Below are positions 2,439 through 43,900 of a stretch of 64,000 bases of DNA, in pieces. The translations under genes were made by a program, and so were the position numbers. This DNA is from Yuukianura sp. NJ FZ-2021 (taxonomy: Eukaryota). Under the pieces are notes generated by a model. The model made no database searches. It was not told the DNA's origin and worked only from the letters and a program-made list of their open reading frames with translations. Each line of letters starts with the position of its first letter. The stretch's first letter is position 1. Where the stretch lies: the NCBI GenBank assembly GCA_046563655.1, contig CM102288.1:6014001-6078000 (forward strand), written 5' to 3'.

Positions 2439-4462
2439 CTAGCGTTCGTAAAAAATCAGCTCATGTGGCTTAGGACCCAGAAGCATCGTGGGAGCAGGTT
2501 TCAAACTGGGTTTCGGACGGTTCGGATTCGTCGTCACGCGGAAATTTTGAAATACACTGAAACATTTTTGAATAAAAATTTTACAGAAATAAACCAACAA
2601 TTTTGATTTCAAAAGCATTGTAATACCTGGTGGTAAACAGAAACAATTCGTCCTTGGCTAGTCGCTCCCCTGAAATTTGAACCTCCAAAGTTTCAGAATT
2701 TTTTTTTCAAACAATTGTTTTTTAAACAGTTTTTTAGAAAATTGCTTTCACTTGCCAATACAAACTCTTTTTCCAAAAGAGAATGGGATGAAAGCTTCAT
2801 GTGACTTGTTGGTTGTTCCGTTCGGAAGTAAGAAACGTTCTGGCCAAAATTCCTCCGGTTTTTCCCAAAGTTGAGGATCGTGCAAAATTTTCCACAAATT
2901 TGGAAAAACAATTGTGTCTTTCGGAATTCGAAATCCCGCAATTGCCACATCTTCAGTTGCAGAGTGCATAATTGACAGTGGGAAAATGGCCACAATGCGC
3001 AGGACTTCCATGATAACACAGTCAGTGTATGGAATTTTAGGCCGGTCACTCAGCTCAACCATTTTGGCGGGACCAACAACTTTTGAAATTTCTTCAAACA
3101 TTTTCTCCTGTATTTCTGGATATAACGCCATGTATAAACAGATCCACGTCAAAGTAGTGCTGGTCTGCAAGGTCAAAGGTCAACTTTTTCAACTTTGTCA
3201 TTTTTTGGTAAAGTATGTAAGACTTACGGTTTCGGATCCTCCGAGGAATAAATCTTCCAGAGATTTAATGACAGACAATTCTGAAAATTTGAAAACAGAT
3301 TCGAAAACGAAATTTGACCTTTGACCTTTGAACTTTACCGCCTTCTTGTTTGTAGAATGAAGACTCCGCATCAGTAGTAGCAGCCACTTCTTCAATCATG
3401 ACGTCCATGAGATCACGTAGTTGTCCAGAAATGAACGTAGCCTTGTGATTGTTGTACTCTTCAGTGATGAATTTGTTCAGTGCATGATGGCCACGCAGAA
3501 GACTGCTGTAACCGCTCATCCTCGGAAACATTTCGGCCAACTTCGGAAAAAAGACGCAAATTGGAGAAGTAGCAGAAATTGCCCTTCAGAAAGTCAAAAA
3601 CAAAATTTCAAAAATTTTTCAAAATTTTATATATTTTTACGTTATTAGTAAATTGTACTACTCAATCAGTCCTTCGTAGATTTTTGTAAGCTTGGGATCG
3701 TCCTGCGGCGTTCGACTGCTCGAACAAATTTTCCACAATGAGTTGACCACCGCTGTAGAAAATCAAAACAAAAATACTTTTCCAACAAATTTTTTTTTCC
3801 AAAATTTCGAGCTTTTGTTCAACCCCAAGTAATTTTTTGAAATCACCTGCATTGAAAAGTCCACTCGTTGCGATCGGAATGCCACTGCGTTTGCGTAGTC
3901 CCTCCAGAAATTCTTGAATTTCATCTTGGATGATTCCCTCCATGGAACTTTTGCCAAATCCAAAATCACGTAGGTTTTTTAGCACAAATCGCCTTTGTTC
4001 CGTCCAGTGCTGCAACTCACTCGAGATGATTCCACGGCAATAAGTTGCTCCCACTTCACTTCGTTCAAGAAATATTTTAAATTTTGGTCTTCCCGCCAAA
4101 GCGGGGTCATTCAAACACTGTTTGAGCAGTTTGAGGTCAGTGATGACAATGGAGCGGAAGGAACCAAAGTCAACGCTAAAAATACCACCGTACTTGTTCC
4201 CCATGGCAACAAAACTCTTCCACGGCTCTAACCCAATTTGATGCAGGTTTCCAATAATCGGAAGGCTCCAGGGACCTGAAATCATAAATTTTCAAAATTT
4301 CAAAAAAGTCAAATTTTGGTTAACTTTTGAACTTTCATGTTTCTGAAATTTCAAATTTTTACCCGGGGGCATTCCTTTTGGTCGCTGATTTTTCGCAATA
4401 GCGAGCCAAGTGAGGCCAAGAATAATTGCAGTCACGCTAATTACAATTAGTGTAACTGACAT
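2439..4462 (-). CDS. Cytochrome P450, CYP2 clan, multi-exon
   Basis: N-terminal anchor MSVTLIVISVTAIILGLTWL and PPG|PWSLPIIGNL; C-helix WTEQRRF; I-helix LFLGGSET|TSTTL; K-helix EVLR; PERF; heme motif PFSFGKRVCIG|ERLA; stop TAG at 2441-2439. Confidence 0.95.
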
Positions 4463-5839
4463 TTTGAAAACAAATCAAAACTGAACTTCAAAAACTCAAA
4501 AACTTTACACTTTCGAAAACTAAATTTTTGAAATTTGATGAATCAAACTCCACTTTTGTTTTCTGTGTTACGTGCCACTCTTTTCCAGAAGAGTTATGGA
4601 CTCACGATGAACGTTTTGTATGCATCATGCAGTTTGCAAAACAAATTAATCTTATGTCCATAAGTGGTTTTTTGGCCTCGTTTTTTTCCAAGGTTAATTT
4701 ACAGCGTGGTTGCAATTTGAAGTTAAACCTCAACAGAAAACTTTTAGGCGCCTCAAAATCTTGTTTTTTAGTTGAACACAAGCTACTGCAGTGGCCTGGC
4801 TTGTCAGTCAAAGTTAGCAAAAAATTAAACTACAAAAACATTTGCATGTTGTCTAGTTTTTTGCAAATTTTTCCTTGTTCAAAATCAAAACAGAAAAGAA
4901 ATTTCTGGAACATATGTATTTAGCGTCACTCGCCGCACAACGACTGGCACTTGCAATTTGATTTGTTGAGCAGTAAAAGTGATGACTCCTCAACAATAAA
5001 TTTTGAAATTTACGATATCTCATGTTTTTATGGGGATCAAACAAGCAAAACACCAAATTTTGAAAGAAAAAAAAACAACATAGGTATTTTGCAAAAACGA
5101 GGTTCCAAAAAACAAAAAAACAAATGACTAGGACAAAGACAAAGAGAGCTATGCGTCATGACTATTTCGTTGTTATGAATTTATGCTCCACCTAAACTTA
5201 AAGTCAAATTAAGTAAAAGGCGGAAGATTAAATATTTCAAACTCCAATTTTTTGAAATTGTATGTTTTTATTTGGTAATTTTTTGAAAAAAAAAACATTA
5301 CCTTCGGGCTACAAAGTTGCAAAAAATTTATAATTTCCCTTCTATCGTGCTGAAACGCTCGGAAGCGTAAAGGGGCCACACACATTTCTGGATTTCAAAA
5401 TTCCATACCTGAAAAATTCTAAATTCTTCATGACCTTATGATACTCGTTTATTGTGTTTAACTTTGAAGTCAACGAGGTTTAAGTTGACGTATGACGGAA
5501 CTTTCCATTACGAAGCAGTGACAAAATTTAACACATTTCATCCCTACTAATTTGGTATGGATTTGGATACATCTGGATCCTGCCTTTGCGGTGAAGCATT
5601 TAAAATTTATGCAGAGGGAGTAAATACTTTCATGTTACAGAAAATAGCATCCAACGCATGATTTGTAGCCAATAATATGCTTTGACATGTTCTCCTTTCT
5701 ATTGTAATTTTACTCAATTATTATAATTTATTTGGCTAATTTAATGACGTCACATTTTATTATAAATTAAACCTTATACTCCCATTTCCAATTTAAATTG
5801 AAGTTTAGTTAGACACGCAATTCCCAAATTGCAGTGGCA

Positions 5840-7217
5840 ATGGCAATGGCCCACTCACTCTTCCAGGTCACCACACTACTGTGTCTCGTAGCATGGACCA
5901 ACTCACAAGGTCAATTGAATTATGCTAAGTTTAAAAAAAAAATTTGCATTTTTTTGAAATTTTTCCAAATTTTTTGAAAAATTGAATGTTTTCTGAATTT
6001 ATCTCATTGTCAGTGATTCCTGGTTTGGGTGTTTTGTCCAACGTGTCTTATGGGTCTGACCCAAGACAAGTGATGGACGTGTTTCTTCCTGGGGGTCGTG
6101 ACGCCACGGTGTCAAAGGTCGTGGTGTTAATCCACGGTGGAGGATGGACACAGGGGAAGAAAGAAGATATGATGCCATTTGCTTACTGGTTTTATGCTAC
6201 TTTCCCACGCCATGCCATCATCACTATGAACTACAGATTAGCGTCAGTGGAGAGTCCAGCGTATCCAAAGCAAACTGACGACATCGCTCTGGCCCTCAAG
6301 TATGTAACGGAGAAACAGGCAGAGTGGCAGATCAAGCCGGAGTTCGGTTTGGTCGGAGTTAGCGCCGGAGGGCATTTGGCAATGCTCTACAGCTATGGAA
6401 CTGACAAGGGACGTCAGGTATGTACAGGGTGTGGCACGTAAAAGTAGACGCTCGAAAAATAATATGTCTTTGTTTATTTAAGGAATTATGGGGGGTAAAC
6501 TATAGTAAATAAACACTTTAGGAAATATATGAGCCTAATCCTAACTTTTTCCAAAAGTGCTTCTGTAGAAAGTTAGAAGGTGTGATGGTGTTTTCAAAAA
6601 ATAATATTTTGGAATTTTTTAAGTCTCCATAAAAAAGAAAAATGCACTGTAGTGAATTTGTTAGCCTAATCCTGATTTTTTCCAAAAGTCCTTCTGTAGA
6701 AAGTTAGTTGTGATGGTGTTTTAAAAAAACGTAATGAAATTGATGGAATAATGTAATGAAATGTATTTGATGTAAATGATGTAATTCATTGGAATTGATG
6801 CAATGAAATGGAATTAATGTAATGATGTAATTAAATGTAACCTAGGTGAATGTCGTGTGTAACGTGGTTGGTCCCACTGACATCGCTGACCCTGGTTACA
6901 CCAACAACTCCGTTTTAATGGAAGTGCTCAAAGGGCTTGTAGGAAATGAGACACTGGAGAGCAACCCAGGAATTTTTGGCACTGTGAGTCCAGTGTCCCA
7001 CGTGACTCGTCAGTCACCCAAAACCATTGCATTTTTCGGCGGGAAGGATCCACTCATTCCTTCTACGCAAGCGTCAAGGCTAGAAGACAAGCTGGACTCT
7101 TCTGGCGTAGTCAACAAAGTGATCATGTACCCCAACCAAGGACATGTATTCTCTGATCCAACCACGCTCCCGGATGTGCTTAAGAGAATGAAATCGTTTT
7201 TTAAAAATTACTTTTAA
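5840..7217 (+). CDS. Secreted alpha/beta-hydrolase (HSL/BD-FAE-like carboxylesterase); 3 exons, ~281 aa
   Basis: Exons 5840-5909, 6014-6417, 6846-7217 splice in frame with GT-AG ends. Hydrophobic leader, oxyanion HGGGW, NYRL, nucleophile GVSAGG, acid residue in GGKDPLIP, His in QGHVF. Confidence 0.9.
6534..6730 (+). repeat. Dispersed intronic repeat (two adjacent copies here; a third at ~43428-43543)
   Basis: CCTAATCCT.A.TTTTTCCAAAAGT.CTTCTG.AGAAAGTTAG..GTG.GAT..TGTTT occurs at ~6534, ~6664 and ~43428, with further similarity through ATATTTT.GAATTTTTT...CATAAAAAAG.AAAAT.CACT. Confidence 0.85.
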
Positions 7218-7595
7218 AAACTTTCAAAGACTATGACTTTTAAAATAAATATTTAGTAACAAAAAACCAAACAAATTTCCCTGTTCATTACGGGAATGGT
7301 GACAAAATGTTTTTGGCACGCCTGGCAATGATACACAAGCCAATACAGAGTCACTATGACACAGCACAGTAAAACAAAGAAATTCGAATTCCGTTAGCAT
7401 ACGCATACTTTAGTTATCATTGTCAAAAAACAGACTATCTTTCGCTACTTCTGAAAAAAGTGCTATCGCCGTTTAGTGAAATATTGAAATAAATTTAGTT
7501 TACATGCTTTTGCAATTGTTCAATAAATATTTTTAGAATTTTCTTTACCCCGTTAACTAATTCCTAATTAACTAATTGCTAATTAACTAATTAAT

Positions 7596-9604
7596 TTAAT
7601 GCTCTCCTTCTGCATAGTACTCTTCGAGTTCGTCAAACTCCGGTTTTTGTCGGGGCATCTTCAAATGCGGTAGAGCATTGGCTGCTGGATGGTGGTGCAT
7701 AGAAGAAAAGGCTTGAACTGCTGAATTCATGTGTGCATGTGCTTGGTTCAAATATGGCGGTCCTTCAAAAAATAAAATTTACATTATGTTACAGAAAGTT
7801 AGCATTATATTACAAGTTACATGAAACGAAAGGTTAAAAACTCACTGTTTCCTGCATTTGGCGGGAGTGGAGCCATGCCGAGCGTGGTGGTCGGAGGTGG
7901 TCGGACGTAAAAAGTTGTTACGATGCTGGGCGGTGGTTCATGTGTAGCTTTCCAGTAAGATTCTAAATACTCTGCTAAATGTTCGCTGGCCTCTTCCAGT
8001 TGATTCTCTTCCAAAATGACATCGAACATTTCCGGGGCACATTGAGCCAATTTCTCGGCGGCAACCATTTGAACATTCAAATTCTTACTCTGCGACTTCC
8101 CACGTGATTTGATCAGCCGTTGAAGCACTTTGGGTGAAGAGATTTTGAGGTAGACGATGATGGGAGCTAAGGAAGTTTTGGCTAGTTGAGAGGGGTGGTT
8201 GACCGTGTCACAGTCCAGGACGACCAGTTGAAGAGTGCGGGACAATTCAAAAATTCGCTCAATTTCGGCTTGAACTTCGGCTAAATTTGAAGATCTTGCA
8301 TTATTACTGCGGTCCATCATCAGTCCGACTGTTCGCTTCGGAGGATTGTTGAGCAGCGACCGCTTGGCAAGTGAAATGTCGGAAGAAACACGAGTGATGA
8401 TGATTTTACCTGAAAAAACAATATTACATCATTACATAAGTAAAACAATATTACATCATTACATAAGTCTTACTTACATAAGTGGTAGGTAATTAGGCTA
8501 TAACCTATACTGATACAAGTTTTAACTATTCTAATATATTTGATAAAATAAAGTCCGTTGTCAATGGCAACTGCCTTTATGTCAACAAAAATATGAATAC
8601 TAAATATTTACTAACTACTACTTAATAAAATAAGAAAAACTAAATTTTTCCGTTCGCATTTACTGGGGAAAAAATTGAAAAAGGCACGCAAAAGCGTACG
8701 CAAAACATGACAACGCAGAATGTGACCAGAGATTGAACGTCGACATAGAAATTATTCAATTTTTTGAAATTTTGTATATAAACCAAATGGAGGGAGTTTC
8801 ATGTAATTTCATGTATTTTTAGGTTATGCAAGTACATACTTACATGATCGACTGTTATGTAATGATGTATTGATTTCATGTAAAAGTATTACCTTCGAAT
8901 CGATGTTTGAGATAATCAAAAATTGCTTTCTGCATCATATCCGTAACTTCATAGCCTTTAAGTGACGGACCGACCAGAACGACCGGACGCATGGACGGCA
9001 CGACGTCATAAGGCGGGGCATGTTCCGTCTTTTTCACAAAGAACGGCGTCTTTTTCTTCTCTTTTGGCGTTCCAGGCTTGACTCCGCCCAGTTTCATGTT
9101 CGTCAGCGAATCAGCGTCGTCTGAAGGCGTTCCAGCTTCACTGTACAGGTCAATCTCTGCCGTGACCTTGCTGGGAGACGTCGGACTCACCGAAATGGAC
9201 GAATTCTGAAGTTGGCGCAAATTTTCGAGTTTGAGTGGCGACGGAATGAAACCGACTTCGGCATCTTCCTGAACCAGTCGCCCGATCCACCAATTGTTGT
9301 CATATTTCTCCTTAATATGCAGGTATTCCTTGATACCGAAAGAAATTGCCGAACCGTGAACCGGTGAGTCGTCGTCTACCGTTCCGTCGTAACTGACGTT
9401 CGTCCGGATCGCGAAGGCTACCGGTTTGAGTTTGGCTTTTTCCAATTGGCTGATGGCTTGTCGTTCGGTTTCGCGCCGAAACACTTCACGCTCTTCGTCC
9501 AGCGATAAATCGCTGCCGGAGAGATGATGAGCAGAATAAGTAGAGTCCTCGGAGCCCCTTCTATCGTGACCTCTGTTGTACATGTGAACTCTACGGTGAT
9601 TCAT
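7596..9604 (-). CDS. CACNB: Voltage-gated calcium channel beta subunit (SH3-HOOK-GK); apparently only 3 coding exons
   Basis: [15 protein letters not shown]3 [47 protein letters not shown] domain [38 protein letters not shown]; last exon ends EYYAEGEH* at 7596. Confidence 0.95.
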
Positions 9605-11108
9605 GGTCACGTGACGTCACGAATATTGAATAATATGTGTTATGATATATAAATATGTAACTATTTTGTATGTTAATATTTAAATATTACATGTTTCGAA
9701 AAAAGATGAAACACTTTTGGTGAAGGTAAATGAGCAGTGAGAGGTCTGAGGAATTCGGGTGATGTAGAATTCTATTTTTAGGTTTCTTCATCTTCCCTGT
9801 TTTTGGCTTCAGTTCCGTTTCAGACTCTTTTTCGAAAAAAAAGTCTATGCCAAACAGATTTTCAAAAATATTTTCAAGCATGACTTTGCACGCTTGCGCA
9901 AAGTTAAGCGCTATGGGAAGAGTAAACGAGAAAAGCCTAACCGGTTTCAAAACTGGCAAAAAAGCGGGAAAGAGATCCAAACATATTTTCAAAATTAAAA
10001 CAAAAATTTCAATTTTTCTGAAAACTGTTAATTTAAAAAAAATTGTATACATGATGGAGATAAAGTTTACAAAATTAATTGTTATTAGAGTTACAATTGA
10101 AACTGAAAAAAAATACGAGAAGCCTTGTAAACAGTACTAACATTTTTAAATAAAATTCAAAAAGTTGAGCTACTTATTGGTTTGACCTTCCCTGTCTGTC
10201 TGTCTGTTATTAGTTATTAATTATTTTAATTAATTAAATTAATCATATTTCATTATAATAAAAATGTATTCTTAACTCAATAATGGCAGTGCTAGTCCAC
10301 TTTGAGCAAGGTTGAGTGAAACTCAGGGTCATCCACTATTACATAATAATTGCACAAAAAAAAACTTTTTCTCCAGAAGTGTCATTAAATCCGCATTTCC
10401 ATAAGTGGACGACGTGTTTCAATTCTGCCTAAAGGTCTCAAGTTCTAACTTTTTTTTCTTACGTTTGTTTATGTATTTGACTAATCTTTTCTGCGAATTC
10501 TCTCCTGTCTGGTCTCTGATTGGTCTACACAGCAATAACTACGTTTGGTTTCCTGAGTATTCTCAACCTGCCTCAAGCATTACTCACGAACAACTTTAAT
10601 TCTCACTAAATAATCGAAGATGCATCGATATGTCTACCGTCACGCTTACACTTATGAAAAAAGTTTGCAAAAAATTTGCATAAAAAAAGAAGTTTTTGCA
10701 TTGGAAGTTGTTGATGGCACAAGTACAGAACTTGTTTGTGGTAAACTGACCTCGTCAGAGTGACGTCCACGTCCATTTCTAAAAAGTTCCGCCGAAGTTG
10801 TAACCACTGACGGAAACTATCGTTCATTTTCAGCGGAATTAAACTTTCATTCACTTTTTAACACTTCAACTTTAAACACTCAAGCACACAGTTCCAGTCT
10901 AATCTTTTTCTTACTAAAGTTTACAAACAGTCAAAGAATTTGTAGGATTTTGGCACATAAAAGACAGTTGCAACACACATTTCGCTCATTTTGAATTTTC
11001 AATTCAACATATTTTTCGAGTTTTCAGTCTTTCTTCAGTAGATTGTTAGATTTTCAAAAAATAAGCAAAAGGTGAATTTTTTTTATTTTTAACAAACTTT
11101 GACACAAA

Positions 11109-34427: not shown

Positions 34428-35186
34428 CATCAAAATAAAATTAGCTTCAACATTTTTTTTTAAAAACCTCCTTTTTTAGAATTAGGTTTTTCATCCAATG
34501 GACTTCATAATTTGTGCAAATATGTCGATCTGTTTGTTTTTCCTTGTTCGTAGGTGTCTCTGTCGATTCGAACTTTGACCTTGAACTTTTATTTGTCACT
34601 TTGCACCGACGTTTGACTAAAATGAAGCGAATATCACGAGTGAAATTTGTCGCTTCTAACGGGGGAACGAGAGTATGAGTTTGAAATTTACGAAACTTCA
34701 ATGTACAGCTTTGTTCACAAAAGTTGAAAACCCCGAAAGTAATTGCTATATTTTTTTTGGGAAATTAGGAATTCATTCTTTGCGGAGATTGAGACCAAAT
34801 AACTTTATCTACACAATTTACATTGTGGGGATTGTTTTCTTTGAATTTTGTACTCAGGACTTTCAAAATTTCAAAAATTTACAAACGTTTGAGTTTGTTG
34901 GAGTCTACTTTTCATGAGCATCACTGTACTTCTATTGTTCAGGAGCGATTAAGTGGAGGTTAAGTGCATCATCTGACCTGTAATAAGAGGTACACATGAT
35001 TAGAGATACCTTATCTTGTAGTCACACATGTGAGCAACATAACAACTTCAATTCAATTTATAACATCCAAACTATAAGTAACTCAACTAAAAATTACAAA
35101 AACTGCTAAAATTTAAGGAATTCAAAAGTTAAAAGTTAAAAAAGTTAAGTTCTTTTAGTAATTTTGAAGTTTCAGTTTGTGAGACA

Positions 35187-38100
35187 ATGGTGTACACAGA
35201 GCGGGACGAATTGTTGCGACCCGGTAGAGTTCAAACATCGAGAACAAAATGGATTGCTCTGATTGGCTCCGTAGCTGTGGCCTCTGTCGTGTGTTTTCTC
35301 CTTGTGATTAACCTAACTAACCAATCAGCATCTTCCAGTGACGCTCAAGTGCTCAAAGCCTCTGCTCCTACTCAAGAAAAAAACTTGATAGCATCCAACG
35401 ACGGAAAAACTTTTAAAAATTTTCTCGGTAGGGGAGAAAATTGGAGGAATTTCCCTGGAAGAGGAAATGAGAGAAATTTCCCCGATAGTGAAGAAAACTG
35501 GAAAAATTTCCCCGGTATAGCGGAAAATAAGAGAAATTTTCCCACTGAGGAAGAAAATGGTGGAAATCGGAGAGACTTTCCTATTGGCGGAAATGGAAGA
35601 AATTTCCCCGGTTGGGAAAATGGGGAAATTTTTCACGCTGAAGACAACTGGATGGATGCCTTCGCTGGAGGAAAGTGGAGAAATGTGCTCAATCGTGAAA
35701 ACAGAACCTCCCGACCCCCCACTGTGACCACCCCTCTGGGGAAGGTCAAAGGGGTCAACTTGAGGTCACGCGCAGGGAGAGACTACAAGGGCTTCTACAA
35801 CTTGCCCTACGCCCAGCCCCCGGTTGGACAACTCCGTTTCAAGGTCAGTGACTTTCTTACGTAAGTTGTGTTACATCATCGCTCCAAACTTTTTAATTCC
35901 GGTTACCATACCAACCGCCATTGAAACTAGGTGAATTCAGTTTTGAAATTTTTTTGCAAAAACATTTAAAACCCCTAGCTATTGCCTAACTTGTTAAAGA
36001 AAAAGTTATTTGTTTGCTTATCCACCTTGAATAGGGCGGCGCTCTTTGGTTGAGAACCTCACTGTTAAGTATTACATATTGTTTAAGTTTCTTTTCCTAA
36101 TGTTACATCAAATTACATTAAACATTACATAAAATTACATTGTGATTTAATGTAAATTGCTCTTCCTAGCCCCCGGTGCCTGCAACGCCTTGGACAGGAA
36201 CGCGTGACTGCACCGTCCAGGGCTCGATGTGTGTCCAGAAAAGTCGCTACAATCCAGACGTGGCTGTGGAAGGAACCGAGGACTGTTTGCATGTCAATCT
36301 GTTCACTCCAAAACTCCCGCGTCGGGGTCAAAGGTCAAGGTCAAATCCACGCATGCCTGTTATTGTCTACTTCTTCGGTGGAGCATTCATGCATGGAACT
36401 GCAAATGACTTCAACTGTGACTACTTCATGGATGAAGACGTCGTCATGGTCATCGTCGAGTCTCGCGTCGGTGTGCTAGGTCAGTTCAAATCCAAAAATA
36501 TAATTATCAATTTTTTTTTTAAAAACAATTGAAATTTTTTGAAATTTTTTATTTTTTTAGGCTTTTTGAACACGGGAGATGAGCATGTACGAGGAAACAT
36601 GGGACTTAAGGACCAAAACATGGCTTTGCGGTGGGTACAGGAAAATATTGAGTCGTTTGGGGGTGACCCCACCCGAGTCGTTGCATTCGGAACAAGTTCT
36701 GGAGCAATGTGTGCCCATGGACATCTACTATCACCTATGAGCAAGGGTAAGGCATATGGAAGTGAATTAATCGATTAATTGATTTCTGTCGATTTTTAGC
36801 ACTTGTGGTTTTTGATTAATTGCAGGATTATTTTCTGGAGTGATGTCTTTTAGTGGAACGACGCTTAGCCCTGGACAATTTACTGTTGATCCTACTGCCA
36901 GTGCCCTGGAATTTGCGGCCGCAATGAACTGTACCGATCCTAATTCGGATGTTGTGATGGAGTGCCTGAGAAATGCGAGCTACTGGGACATAGCTCTGCA
37001 CCAACCGGAAGTTGGGCCGACACTGGAGTTGATACCGGAAGACGGCGATACTTCTCAAGTATTCTTCCCAGCTACACCAGTCGACTTAATGCTTTCGGGA
37101 CAAGCTAATCCAGTTCCCTGGTTAACCGGAGTCAATTCGGCCGAAACAATTCTGGATTCATATAGTACGTCAACCACGATCCTAACTTTACCGTAGATTT
37201 CCAAATAGTACTCAGAATACAGTAGATTTCCGAATAGCACCACGATCCCAACAAAAATACCGTAAATTTTCAAACAGGACCCCTGCTCTAAAGCTTAGCA
37301 AAAAATTAAGTTCCTCGGGTATACTTATTTGGAAAGCCGGAACTATTAGCATACACTATGTATTTTAATATAGCACTGTTGCTGGATGAGAACATGACTA
37401 AATTGCTGAACGAGCAATGGGAAATGGTGCTGCCAATTATGCTGTTGCTAAGCGACTCAAACCAAACTTTAGTCGACGAAACGACGCGCCAAATCCACGA
37501 CTTTTATTTTCAAAACAAAACAATTTCGCGCTACGACGACACAAGATACAATTTAACCAACATGATTTCGGATCGGTGACAAACACAAGACATATAAATA
37601 TATAAATTATTTAAATATTTAATTAAAACAAGTTTACTTAAATATAATATTTAAAATATTTTTAGTTATCACTACCATTCCACGCGGACTGCAGGATTGA
37701 ATCACGCCAAAAAGAATCCAGTTTATTGGTATTATTTAACAAAGGAAGCAAATGTCAGTTTCGCAGATTCGGTTACGCAGTACTTTGAGCCACCTTACGG
37801 TAATTCAACACTTTTCGAAAAAAAAATTATATTTTCAAAAAAAAAAAAATCAATTTAAAAAAAATAACAAGATTTTGATTCTTTAGGAGTTTCACATGCT
37901 GATGAGGTGCAGTACTTTTTTTTCCGTCCAAGATACCCCTACATTCCCCTGGATTCTCCGTGGGCAGACTTTTCAATTTTGCTAGTCAAACTCTGGGTGT
38001 CTTTTGCTGCAACTGGGTAACTTTATTTCAAAAAATTTCTAAAATCGTTTCAAAATTTTGAAAAGTAAATTCGAAAATTGTTTTATTTTTAGAGCTCCGG

Positions 38101-40967: not shown

Positions 40968-43900
40968 ATGAGTACTAATCGCGGAATCAAGGGGACGAAG
41001 ACACGGTCCTACCGGGGGTATGGATCTACTTCGTCCAGTGCTCACTCGTCAATAGAACGGGACAGAGACAGAGTTGCTCACAATCGAGCTCTACTGGAAA
41101 ACATGCATGTAAGTTCCGGTGTCAAGGTTAAATCCAGTGATTTTCATACAACACTTTTCTAAAAAGTTAATTTTCCAAAAAATGTGTTCAATTTTTCTGT
41201 TTTTCAGGAACCTTTGCTGAATCAAATTCGACAGCACACGGCCGCCGAGACGCATGGCCCGTTTCCATCCAAGTTCAAAGAAATCTCAAGGATACGGAGA
41301 AGGTTCCACAGAAAAACGAAAATTTCGACAGTAATTAAGTGATTCGTTACTGAATTACTTTTGATTGATGTGTTTTTTAGACCGATGCTGCGGACCAAAT
41401 CCGAATCGGACTTTCCCGGACACGTGAGTGAGGAGCAAGTGGAGGAAATTCGTGCCAAATTGATCCATGACCACAACATTCCATCGTATCACTTAAAAAA
41501 AGTGCCGAAGTTTACGCACCGGCAGAAACTCGTTCTTGCGTCGCTTGCAATCGTGGATTTCTCTGCGTTTTGCTCCATGAGTATTCTGGCTCCGTTTTTT
41601 CCGCAAAAAGCAGAGGAAAAGGGAGTCTCGACGACAATGTCGGGATTCATCTTCTCCTTCTACGCGCTCATTGTGTTTCTAGGTATGACCAATTTTTTCA
41701 AAATTTTGAAACTTTGAATTTAGAAATACAAAATTTTATAAACTTTGATTTTTATGTTAGCGTCTCCAATGATGGGCGTGATGGCGGGAAAAGTGGGGCC
41801 GAGGTTTCTGCTGCTCGTGGGTGTGTTCATGTGTGGTGTTGCCAATATCATGTTTGGGTAAGATTCAAGGAGTTGTGCTTTTTCAAAAAGTTTTTGAAAA
41901 AACTATCTTCATTTTTTGACTTTTTTTTTCGAAAATGTGTTTTGTAATTTTTTTTGTTTGCTTTGTGTGCAGATTGCTGGACATGATTGAGTCCGGCCTT
42001 GTTTTCACTGTTTACTGTTTTATTGTTCGTTTCTTTGAAGCCATTGGAGCAGCAGCTTTTTCTACGGCCAGCTACACTTATGTCGCCAAGCTTTTTCCAG
42101 ATAATATCGGAGCTGTGCTCGTAAGTAACCAAAAAACGTCAACGCAAGCACCAAAAACGTTTTTTTTTTAAAATAATCTTTGAATTTTTGACCAGGGAAT
42201 TTTGGAAACTTTTGTTGGACTCGGGTGAGTTGTAATTAAAAAAAATGAAAGTGAATCAAGCCTGTCAGGAGTTTTTAGAAATCAGAAATTTTGACCTTTC
42301 AATTTCTTCTTTTCAGGCTAAGCGTTGGGCCAGCTATTGGTGGCGTTCTGTACGACGTGAGTTAACTTCCAGCCACAACTATTTCATCAAAATTCAAATT
42401 ATTTTTTGGAAACAAGTTTCCCGCCTTTTTGATTTGACTTTTATTTGAATTGCAGTGGGGTGGGTACGGCCTTCCATTTTGGGTGTTGGGTGGATTTATA
42501 CTGCTGACGATTCCGATCAACATGCTGCTGCTGCCCGGCAGTGAGTGCAATGCTGACGAGGAACAGCAAGAGAGCATGTGGAAACTGTTCAGAATTAAAC
42601 CAATCATCATCATCGCCCTTATCGTCGTCATCGTGTCCAATGCATGGGGGTTCCTTGACCCCACACTGGCCACGCATCTCGCTGAGGTAACATTTCAAAA
42701 TTTTGAAAAAAAAAATTGAAATTTTATTTTATGAAATGTGTCGAACTAATCTTTTTAGTTCAACTTGTCTGCTAAGCAACTGGGTCTGTTTTTTTTGCTG
42801 TGCTCCGCTCTCTACGGCTTATCGTCTCCATTGTGGGGCTACATCGCTGATCAAATGACACGGACGTGGATTCTGATGGTGGTGGGACTTGTGCTGTCAG
42901 CATTCGGACTCATGCTGCTCGGACCTTCACCGTTTCTACCATTCAAAAAGTAACATTTCAAAAAAAAAGTTTCAAAAAATACAACTTGACAAAAAATTTA
43001 CAGCAATTTTAAATTTTGGAAACAGCTCCATTCCATTGAACATCTTAGCACTCGTAATCCTTGGACTGGCCATCTCCATGGCGCTGCTGCCAACGTTCGA
43101 ATCCATGCTGGACTTTGCGATGTAAAAAGTCCATTACAAAAAAAAATACAATGAGTTTTACTTCAACATTTTAACTTTGAACTTTTTTTCATGTTTTAAC
43201 ATCGTGTTTTAACTTTTCAGCGATGGAGGTTATCCAGACGATGTGAGGCTGTATGGACTCATCGCTGGTCTCTGGTCTTCCATGTACTCTCTTGGGTAAG
43301 CTAAAACTAAAGTTGAAGTCGCAATTTCACTGAATTTTTCCGCAATTCCCCTCACTGTTACTGCAATTCTTAACTTTTCTGCAATTCCACTCAAGTTTGT
43401 TTTTGCAATTCCATCCTGATCTGACTTTCCTAATCCTGACGTTTTCCAAAAGTCCTTCTGCAGAAAGTTAGATGGTGCGATGATGTTTTAAAAACACAAT
43501 ATTTTAGAATTTTTTGAATTTTCATAAAAAAGGAAAATCCACTTTTACTAAACTTTATTTACTAAAAATTTTCTATTGCAGAGAAGTGATAGGTCCTGCG
43601 CTGGGAGCTTCCTTGACTGACCATTTCGGTTTCGAAATTGCTGCGACAGTACAATGTGGCCTGTGTTTAGTGTTGGTGAGTTTACAAATCTTGTTTTTTT
43701 TAATTTAAGTATTTAAGTTTGTTCAACTAAAACAATCGGAGTGTTAGAATTAGAAATCTATGTTTGATTGATTGATTAATTGATTACCAGGGGATCATCG
43801 TTTTGATTTACTTTGTCGGATTCTACCGGATACCTCCGCATTCAGCGAGTCGTGGCGAGCGTGACCGAGAACGGGACAAATTGATTCCGGAAATATCCGA

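Follow-up and report, generated by a model that had tools for sequence, protein, structure and literature searches.

We analysed a stretch of 64,000 nucleotides from the assembly of Yuukianura sp. NJ FZ-2021 (GCA_046563655.1, contig CM102288.1, positions 6,014,001 to 6,078,000), hereafter called the window, which carries an intron-bearing gene for a compact hydrolase of the esterase family BD-FAE. An earlier reading of the sequence alone had described this gene as encoding a hydrolase of ~281 aa with two GT-AG introns and a separate leader exon, and had proposed that it was acquired from bacteria by horizontal gene transfer. To characterize the gene, the three exons listed in Table 1 were joined by their coordinates using a script. 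This provided a frame of 846 nt that encodes 281 aa plus the stop codon and contains no internal stop, in full agreement with the earlier description. The motifs quoted in that description (NVSYGSDPRQVMDVFLP, VLIHGGGW, NYRLA, GVSAGGHL, VVGPTD, GGKDPLIP and GH) were all found. The GC content is 20% in intron 1 and 29% in intron 2, compared to 47-53% in the exons. Within the 64-kb window no second copy of the esterase was found by tblastn. As read from the sequence, the gene appears to be an intact three-exon, intron-bearing gene whose transcript would be spliced in vivo.

Table 1. Coordinates of the esterase gene, its neighbours and the associated repeats (numbering of the window)
Feature	Position	Strand	Remarks
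Cytochrome P450 exons	2751..4291	-	Pfam p450 1.6e-52, 1.5e-18; 5' neighbour, divergent to the esterase, within 1.6 kb
TATAAAT, TATA-like box	5761..5767	+	73-79 nt 5' of the ATG; putative, from sequence only
Exon 1	5840..5909	+	70 nt; ATG, hydrophobic leader MAMAHSLFQVTTLLCLVAWTNSQ and base 1 of a split Val codon
Intron 1	5910..6013	+	104 nt, GT..AG, phase 1, 20% GC
Exon 2	6014..6417	+	Hydrolase N-terminal half; HGGGW oxyanion motif 6133-6147; nucleophile elbow GVSAGG
Intron 2	6418..6845	+	428 nt, GTATGT..AG, phase 0, 29% GC
Short interspersed repeat, two copies in intron 2	6507-6601, 6638-6729		Period ~131 nt, 83-84% alike
Exon 3	6846..7217	+	Hydrolase C-terminal half; GGKDPLIP, QGHV; TAA stop 7215-7217
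AATAAA, poly(A)-signal-like hexamer	7244..7249	+	27 nt 3' of the stop; putative, from sequence only
Voltage-gated calcium-channel beta subunit exons	7820..9616	-	Pfam VGCC_beta4Aa_N, Guanylate_kin; 3' neighbour, convergent, within 0.6 kb
Short interspersed repeat, third copy	43429-43543		Same repeat as in intron 2; unit ~90-115 nt

For both hydrolase exons the top Pfam family was BD-FAE (PF20434), while Abhydrolase_3 and its kin scored lower. Exon 2 reached 84.7 bits (8.4e-24) and exon 3 38.9 bits (8.8e-10) at a gathering cut-off of 26.8, such that together they cover positions 1-111 and 133-215 of the 215 profile positions. Since each of the two exons exceeds the cut-off, the esterase frame did not arise by chance. 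NCBIfam returned just sub-threshold matches, to models of the hormone-sensitive-lipase type and of acetyl esterases. The top solved structures were 6XYC and 6TKX (E ~1e-11 for exon 2 and 2e-3 for exon 3); a Bacteroides GH43-CE protein ranked next.

The structure 6TKX is that of BD-FAE, which is described in its publication (PMC8165983) as a bifunctional feruloyl/acetyl-xylan esterase from a polysaccharide utilisation locus of Bacteroidetes, with the catalytic triad Ser128-Asp237-His269 and with Gly53 in the oxyanion hole. Residues 8-123 of exon 2 align with residues 20-135 of 6TKX without net gaps at an offset of 12, which places Ser116 of the exon onto Ser128 and Gly41 onto Gly53. In the numbering of the complete window protein these are Ser140 (codon 6361-6363) and Gly65 of the HGGGW motif. 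Exon 3 aligns with residues 176-270 of 6TKX. Here GGKD falls onto GDAD and QGH onto GGH, i.e. Asp226 (codon 7047-7049) aligns with Asp237 and His258 (codon 7143-7145) with His269. The intact Ser-Asp-His triad that had been noticed earlier therefore corresponds to the catalytic positions of BD-FAE. The assignment to a BD-FAE-type, Bacteroidota-like family likewise held, given the Pfam match, the best solved structure and the named relatives (see below).

The fold was modelled for L003, an uninterrupted eukaryotic relative that is 51% identical to the window protein, using an alignment of 55 rows. The prediction had a predicted local distance difference test score (pLDDT) of 96.3 and a predicted template modelling score (pTM) of 0.93. 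Its best fold matches were 6XYC and 6TKX with template modelling (TM) scores of 0.81 and 0.80, respectively, followed by the GH43-CE protein and a rumen lipase. Carried over from this relative, the model suggests that the window protein adopts an alpha/beta-hydrolase fold like that of the BD-FAE crystal structure. Look-alikes in the ESM Atlas were bacterial BD-FAE clusters from mixed phyla; they say nothing on transfer and were not used as evidence.

Bacterial and eukaryotic relatives

With exon 2 as query, 1045 longer proteins were obtained at E<=0.001. Eight of the best 120 carry an organism name and all eight are Bacteroidota (Flavobacteriaceae, Flavobacterium, Winogradskyella, Aestuariivivens, Flavivirga and Bacteroidia) with identities of 43-49%. 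The top match is a metagenome protein at 64%. A search with a profile of the eukaryote-like sequences provided nine organism-named proteins among its best 120, again exclusively from Bacteroidota. Over both searches the named relatives are 37-49% identical to the window protein. No named eukaryote was found among the best 120 plus best 120 matches, and the same database provides many named arthropod proteins for the neighbouring calcium-channel gene. We also scanned bacterial and archaeal genomes with a single peptide pattern. Of the best 80 loci, which are 40-51% identical, 77 have a Bacteroidota title, with Flavobacteriaceae and Crocinitomicaceae making up most of them. A Glaciecola, a Spirochaetota bin and an unclassified bacterium account for the remaining three. 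The maximum identity to any bacterial sequence was ~56%.

An animal origin would be expected to show in these matches if the gene descended vertically within a metazoan family such as kynurenine formamidase or AADAC, the kind of outcome that the sequence-only reading had itself named as a refutation. Such a placement was not seen, neither among the 120 plus 120 proteins nor among the 60 best matches in the PDB. The latter contain no chain named kynurenine formamidase, and their animal-type entries are cholinesterases only, with E-values of 0.03-0.05 compared to 1e-11 for BD-FAE.

An exhaustive HMMER search yielded 11,365 cluster representatives at E<=0.001. Among the top matches are short proteins whose first residue is the internal Met of MDVYLP and whose 3' end runs into AT-rich read-through. 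These proteins look eukaryotic, since this is the form in which a bacterial gene caller renders eukaryotic exons. From the best 80 loci of a metagenome scan 14 were examined, of which ten are bacterial and four eukaryotic (L001, L002, L003 and L031). The four eukaryotic copies, which include the top three loci (L001, L002 and L003), stem from one metagenome and have a eukaryotic gene structure. In L001, L002 and L003 a Met-initiated hydrophobic leader exon (MANFLEIAFLLASVASPGNTQ, MGQFFQLASLFLSLATCVKSQ and MQTTSVKVVFYASATLLILSIGQCQD, respectively) is followed by a GT...AG phase-1 intron whose position, just before the conserved NxSYG strand, matches that in the window gene. In L031, which is truncated at its 5' end, a phase-1 acceptor is found at the cut. 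For L002 and L003 no in-frame ATG is present between the last upstream stop and the NxSYG strand, such that both genes need the leader exon. The leaders of the four genes end in S-Q, T-Q, S-Q and C-Q(-D), with Q-D in L003. Read by eye, these ends would fit a signal-peptidase site that is followed by an N-terminal Gln.

The contig of L002 is eukaryotic, since it carries an RNA polymerase III RPC4 gene ~0.8 kb upstream of the esterase. Overall the eukaryotic copies are 40-63% identical in protein, and the three with a leader exon 51-63%. L001 contains an additional phase-1 intron of ~73 nt near residue 243. Intron 2 of the window gene is absent from L001, L002 and L003. The triad and oxyanion residues are all kept in the window gene, L001, L003 and L031. 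The earlier argument that the introns speak against contamination gains strength from three other eukaryotic copies in which leader exon and intron recur.

Three further sequences of the HMMER search (P0128, P0127 and P0168) are exon-like fragments that end in AT-rich read-through. P0127 and P0168 break directly after the SAG of the nucleophile elbow and are sisters in the 109-row tree described below, and P0128 breaks at most one codon away from the position of intron 2 in the window gene. These breaks may represent further introns, either lineage-specific or shared.

P0004, P0124, P0146 and P0393 were assigned as eukaryotic by their contigs (L001, L002, L031 and L003, respectively), while for P0394, P0395 and P0406 the eukaryotic nature was deduced from intron-like read-through at their ends. 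A quick tree comprised 109 rows: 11 eukaryote-like sequences, 79 of the 80 named genome loci, 9 top matches and 10 distant representatives. The one named locus that is missing from it did not provide a clean frame. All 11 eukaryote-like rows formed one clade with a support of 89 in the Shimodaira-Hasegawa-like approximate likelihood ratio test (SH-aLRT), within which the window gene grouped with L001, L002 and L031 at 99. The clade adjoined a Crocinitomicaceae-type clade (90) within a part of the tree that is dominated by Flavobacteriales. A maximum-likelihood (ML) tree of 69 rows was calculated after removal of 3 short fragments, 34 named genome loci (mostly near-duplicates) and 5 long-branched distant rows. 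Here the eight eukaryote-like rows again formed one clade (ultrafast bootstrap 95, SH-aLRT 86), with values of 97/94 for the seven rows without P0406 and 98/100 for the window gene together with L001, L002 and L031. The eukaryote-like clade was located among Flavobacteriaceae- and Crocinitomicaceae-type sequences.

The codon use of the esterase resembles that of the host and not that of the bacterial homologues. The GC content at third codon positions (GC3) of the esterase is 0.54, compared to 0.39-0.54 for 14 host exons of the window and a median of 0.34 for 79 bacterial homologues. Its relative synonymous codon usage (RSCU) has a correlation of 0.31 with the pooled host exons and of -0.01 with the bacterial homologues. 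For individual host exons the correlation with the pooled host exons is 0.16-0.64.

The gene is surrounded by ordinary animal genes, as had been stated earlier. Next to the P450 and calcium-channel genes (Table 1), exons of an SLC6 transporter, a fucosyltransferase, a carboxylesterase and a GH31 protein are found further along the window. The matches of the calcium-channel exon are arthropod proteins only. The springtails Allacma fusca and Folsomia candida are the best named ones (68%), and insects and crustaceans follow with 57-67%. By these matches the host is a pancrustacean arthropod, possibly a springtail or a close relative of the springtails. The base composition is even across the window. 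Contigs from two sequencing runs, X3 (5225-6149) and X2 (5625-6274), extend from intergenic DNA across exon 1 and intron 1 and reach into exon 2. For a second organism from another study, one contig that is ~85-90% alike spans 3610-5877, i.e. from the P450 gene to the start of exon 1, and a further contig covers 7083-7474. In the run of this organism (X5) some exon 2 bins were uncovered at 80% likeness, which is no evidence of absence.

At six listed sites between 7136 and 7178, within the final 80 nt of exon 3, the contigs of runs X1-X3 all differ from the window. Three of the differences are synonymous and three are replacements (Q to E, V to A and T to A). The runs and the assembly thus represent different haplotypes or strains.

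Proposed transfer from Bacteroidota and its alternatives

We favour a horizontal transfer from Bacteroidota followed by domestication in an arthropod, with a probability of roughly 0.8. The transfer that had been proposed from the sequence is supported by the named relatives, which are exclusively Bacteroidota, by the position of the clade among Flavobacteriales and by the linkage to animal genes. Linkage to the host, placement in a donor clade, and acquired introns together with host codon use were each found for the window gene.

In such a transfer the ancestor would be a lipoprotein-type BD-FAE alpha/beta-hydrolase of a Flavobacteriales-like bacterium, whose gene would have entered the germ line of an arthropod ancestor. 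A eukaryotic signal peptide, encoded by a first exon of its own with a phase-1 intron behind it, would then have taken the place of the bacterial lipoprotein leader. Duplication or divergence would have provided a small family, while codon usage turned host-like and a second intron was gained in the lineage of the window gene. The product would most likely be a secreted serine carboxylesterase of ~258 residues after removal of the leader, in which Ser140-Asp226-His258 and the HGGG oxyanion hole may act on a substrate outside the cell or in the gut lumen and strip it of acyl groups, such as acetyl, feruloyl or other short esters. The transfer would be old, since the eukaryotic copies are diverged, share the leader intron and, for the window gene, have host-like codon use.

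A more specific version of these events is tentative and less likely than not. It assumes one old transfer from Flavobacteriales to an arthropod, in which the signal-peptide exon was recruited once, followed by the radiation into a multi-copy family of secreted esterases that is confined to a single hexapod or crustacean lineage, one that lacks annotated members in the databases searched. Intron 2 would have been gained later at an AG|GT site and would now contain a very high-copy repeat. If true, the locus would be a datable record of how a bacterial exported enzyme gained a eukaryotic leader and introns, possibly by repeat insertion.

A number of points weigh against a transfer with subsequent domestication, and several of them feed a different explanation. 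Only about one quarter of the database proteins carry organism names, and the profile search was performed at near lengths by scoring the 8000 candidates that share most words. Over exon 2 the best bacterial identity is just ~50-55%, so that one has to assume either an unsampled donor lineage or an old event. In the ML tree the Crocinitomicaceae-type clade is only weakly supported as the sister group (69/87), the deeper branching order among the Flavobacteriales lineages is poorly supported, and the root at five distant rows was assumed. Both trees were calculated without eukaryotic superfamily members such as metazoan kynurenine formamidase, AADAC and plant ICME. Eukaryotic proteins do occur in the wider superfamily (kynurenine formamidase, ICME), and with such a tree, which has weak deep nodes and no eukaryotic outgroup, one may suppose that the gene is an old, vertically inherited eukaryotic member of BD-FAE/Abhydrolase_3 that was lost or is unannotated in most animals. 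In that case slow evolution or a reverse transfer would explain why it resembles Bacteroidota. We consider this highly improbable, given that the best 120 lists contain no named eukaryote and only Bacteroidota as named entries, that the eukaryote-like rows cluster tightly in a single clade, with many diverse bacterial lineages around it, that the animal-type PDB esterases reach E-values of 0.03 or worse compared to 1e-11 for BD-FAE, and that the bacterial relatives go into the thousands (11,365 cluster representatives). A further point concerns the assembly itself: Runs X1-X3 belong to one sample, possibly the source of the assembly, and only the second organism therefore provides independent support for the linkage. 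That a bacterial contaminant was joined into an arthropod scaffold is nonetheless extremely improbable. The gene contains two AT-rich GT-AG introns, the second of which harbours a high-copy repeat of the host that recurs elsewhere in the window, and its codon use is host-like. The border between intergenic DNA and gene is spanned by contigs that reach exon 2, and a contig of the second organism leads from the P450 gene to exon 1. The identity to bacteria never exceeds ~56%.

Other points concern the gene product. Secretion was judged from hydrophobicity, from a -3/-1 pattern seen by eye and from exon conservation. An in-frame ATG at 5986 inside intron 1 is open through into exon 2, with no stop in between, such that a leaderless two-exon model is possible. 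In this case the acquired and intact enzyme would start with MFSEFISLSV... and be intracellular, with exon 1 remaining unused. This start is unlikely, as L002 and L003 have no usable in-frame ATG and need their leader exon, and as the bacterial ancestors are exported lipoproteins. Moreover, leader exon and phase-1 intron recur in three copies that are just 51-63% identical, from which we argue for selection on the leader. The gene neighbourhoods of the bacterial relatives give no hint at a substrate (see below). Finally, the 3' half of L002 (5466-5780) contains two frameshifts and one stop in the expected frame, so that not all members of the family need be functional; L002 may be a decaying paralogue or contain assembly indels. 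This copy, together with the three of six differences between runs and window at 7136-7178 that change an amino acid, would fit a decaying or silent relic of a transfer, i.e. an intact yet unexpressed pseudogene-to-be. For the window gene this is decidedly unlikely, since its 281-codon frame is open, none of the catalytic and oxyanion residues has been lost, either here or in L001, L003 and L031, and splice sites, TATA-like box and AATAAA are in place. In addition, a shift of codon use to that of the host needs long residence under translation. We therefore retain the transfer from Bacteroidota with domestication in an arthropod as the preferred reading.

Product and known systems

The product of the transferred gene is presumably active as an esterase and is likely secreted via its leader exon, while its bacterial relatives carry lipoprotein leaders that end in Cys. 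Plant or fungal cell-wall esters had been suggested as substrates. We inspected the neighbourhoods of the ten bacterial metagenome loci, using 5-kb flanks that contained 28 neighbouring proteins and a threshold of E<=1e-5. Among these 28 neighbours no glycoside hydrolase or SusC/SusD-type families were found. Sua5/YrdC upstream together with UvrD downstream was present at six of the ten loci, NlpC/P60 upstream at two, and an adjoining second BD-FAE copy also at two. The proposed cell-wall substrate is thus unsupported, because the examined bacterial relatives sit beside housekeeping genes and not beside genes for polysaccharide utilisation; it is a guess.

In three Bacteroidota loci (L006, L013 and L042) two genes of the BD-FAE family lie <1 kb apart. 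In L006 and L013 the gene of an NlpC/P60 peptidoglycan hydrolase is located directly upstream of the first BD-FAE copy.

The characterized enzyme BD-FAE (6TKX, 6XYC) and the window esterase share the family PF20434, the aligned triad and oxyanion Gly, and a similar size (~280-300 aa), but are only ~25% identical. According to the BD-FAE publication (PMC8165983), membership in the family does not predict function, and only the 33 closest homologues of BD-FAE are found in xylan loci, whereas the bacterial relatives of the window gene lie beside Sua5/YrdC, UvrD or NlpC/P60. Considerably closer are uncharacterised lipoproteins of Flavobacteriales that are annotated as 'alpha/beta hydrolase' or 'acetyl esterase/lipase' (Flavobacterium, Fluviicola, Taishania, Dokdonia and Aequorivita), with identities of 43-56% over exon 2 and 38-49% over the whole profile. 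They agree with the window protein in length and are collinear from the NVSYG strand to a C-terminal F-x-x-x-[FL] motif. They differ in having a Cys-ending leader, no introns and a median GC3 of 0.34, whereas the window gene has a leader exon, two introns and a GC3 of 0.54. Metazoan kynurenine formamidase and AADAC also belong to the alpha/beta hydrolases and have an HGG oxyanion motif as well as a GxSxG nucleophile. They are not among the best sequence or structure matches listed for the window esterase.

Bacterial hydrolase genes in small arthropods are thought to widen digestion or detoxification. The acquisition of microbial hydrolases by horizontal transfer is well documented for springtails and further small arthropods. 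For the springtail Folsomia candida the genome paper (PMC5490193) describes 809 foreign genes, among which carbohydrate-active enzymes, carbohydrate esterases included, are enriched. These transfers are of the same kind as the one favoured here, in that a soil/litter arthropod carries a hydrolase gene of bacterial origin in linkage with native genes. No mention of a BD-FAE-type esterase was found in the available parts of this paper or its supplements, where 'Flavobacter' has 27 occurrences, all of them tree labels of other genes where shown (PMC5490193). No Folsomia, Orchesella or Allacma protein occurred among the best 120 plus 120 matches of the esterase. In titles and abstract openings of the literature on horizontal transfer of esterases in arthropods or springtails, no report of the BD-FAE family in animals was found.

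What would be new is therefore an esterase family that is added to the bacterial hydrolases adopted by arthropods. The adoption of a bacterial gene by a small arthropod is an event of a known type, and the present case is fairly clear but not unusual. The general picture remains unchanged, since hundreds of such springtail transfers have already been described (PMC5490193). The case is a clean one: It comprises several diverged copies, a leader exon and intron common to three of them, and later introns that are lineage-specific. It could serve as a worked example for the order of domestication steps, i.e. leader replacement, intron gain and codon adaptation.

Intron 2 and further features of the window

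The short interspersed repeat in intron 2 stood out in the read data. In run X1 the summed contig depth at 6456-6863 was 250,000-486,000, compared to roughly 110-2,350 in the other bins. Since this exceeds the depth of the other bins about a hundred to a thousand times or more, the repeat should be present in the genome at very high copy number. No inverted repeats were found in it; it may be a SINE, a MITE or a satellite. We also considered that intron 2 as a whole could be a transposon (an 'introner'). The data do not show this, as the repeat occupies just ~6507-6729 of 6418-6845 and no inverted repeats were found. The AG|GT at both borders of intron 2 gives no support for an introner either, since it would be seen wherever an intron sits at a proto-splice site.

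The 3' part of intron 2 (6730-6845) is a degenerate tandem array with a unit of ~19-28 nt. It is rich in GTAATGA/AATG and contains four copies that are 72-84% alike.

Two additional frames of the window are worth recording. An open frame of 636 codons on the reverse strand (2-1909) runs off the start of the window. It has no Pfam match at E<=0.001 and, judged by eye, may encode a protein like the arthropod ionotropic (glutamate-like) chemoreceptors. The carboxylesterase at 35133-37196 on the forward strand, 28 kb downstream, is of the ordinary animal type (Pfam COesterase) and not related to the BD-FAE gene. A stretch in the N-terminal part of its first long frame is repetitive and rich in 'NFPG'.

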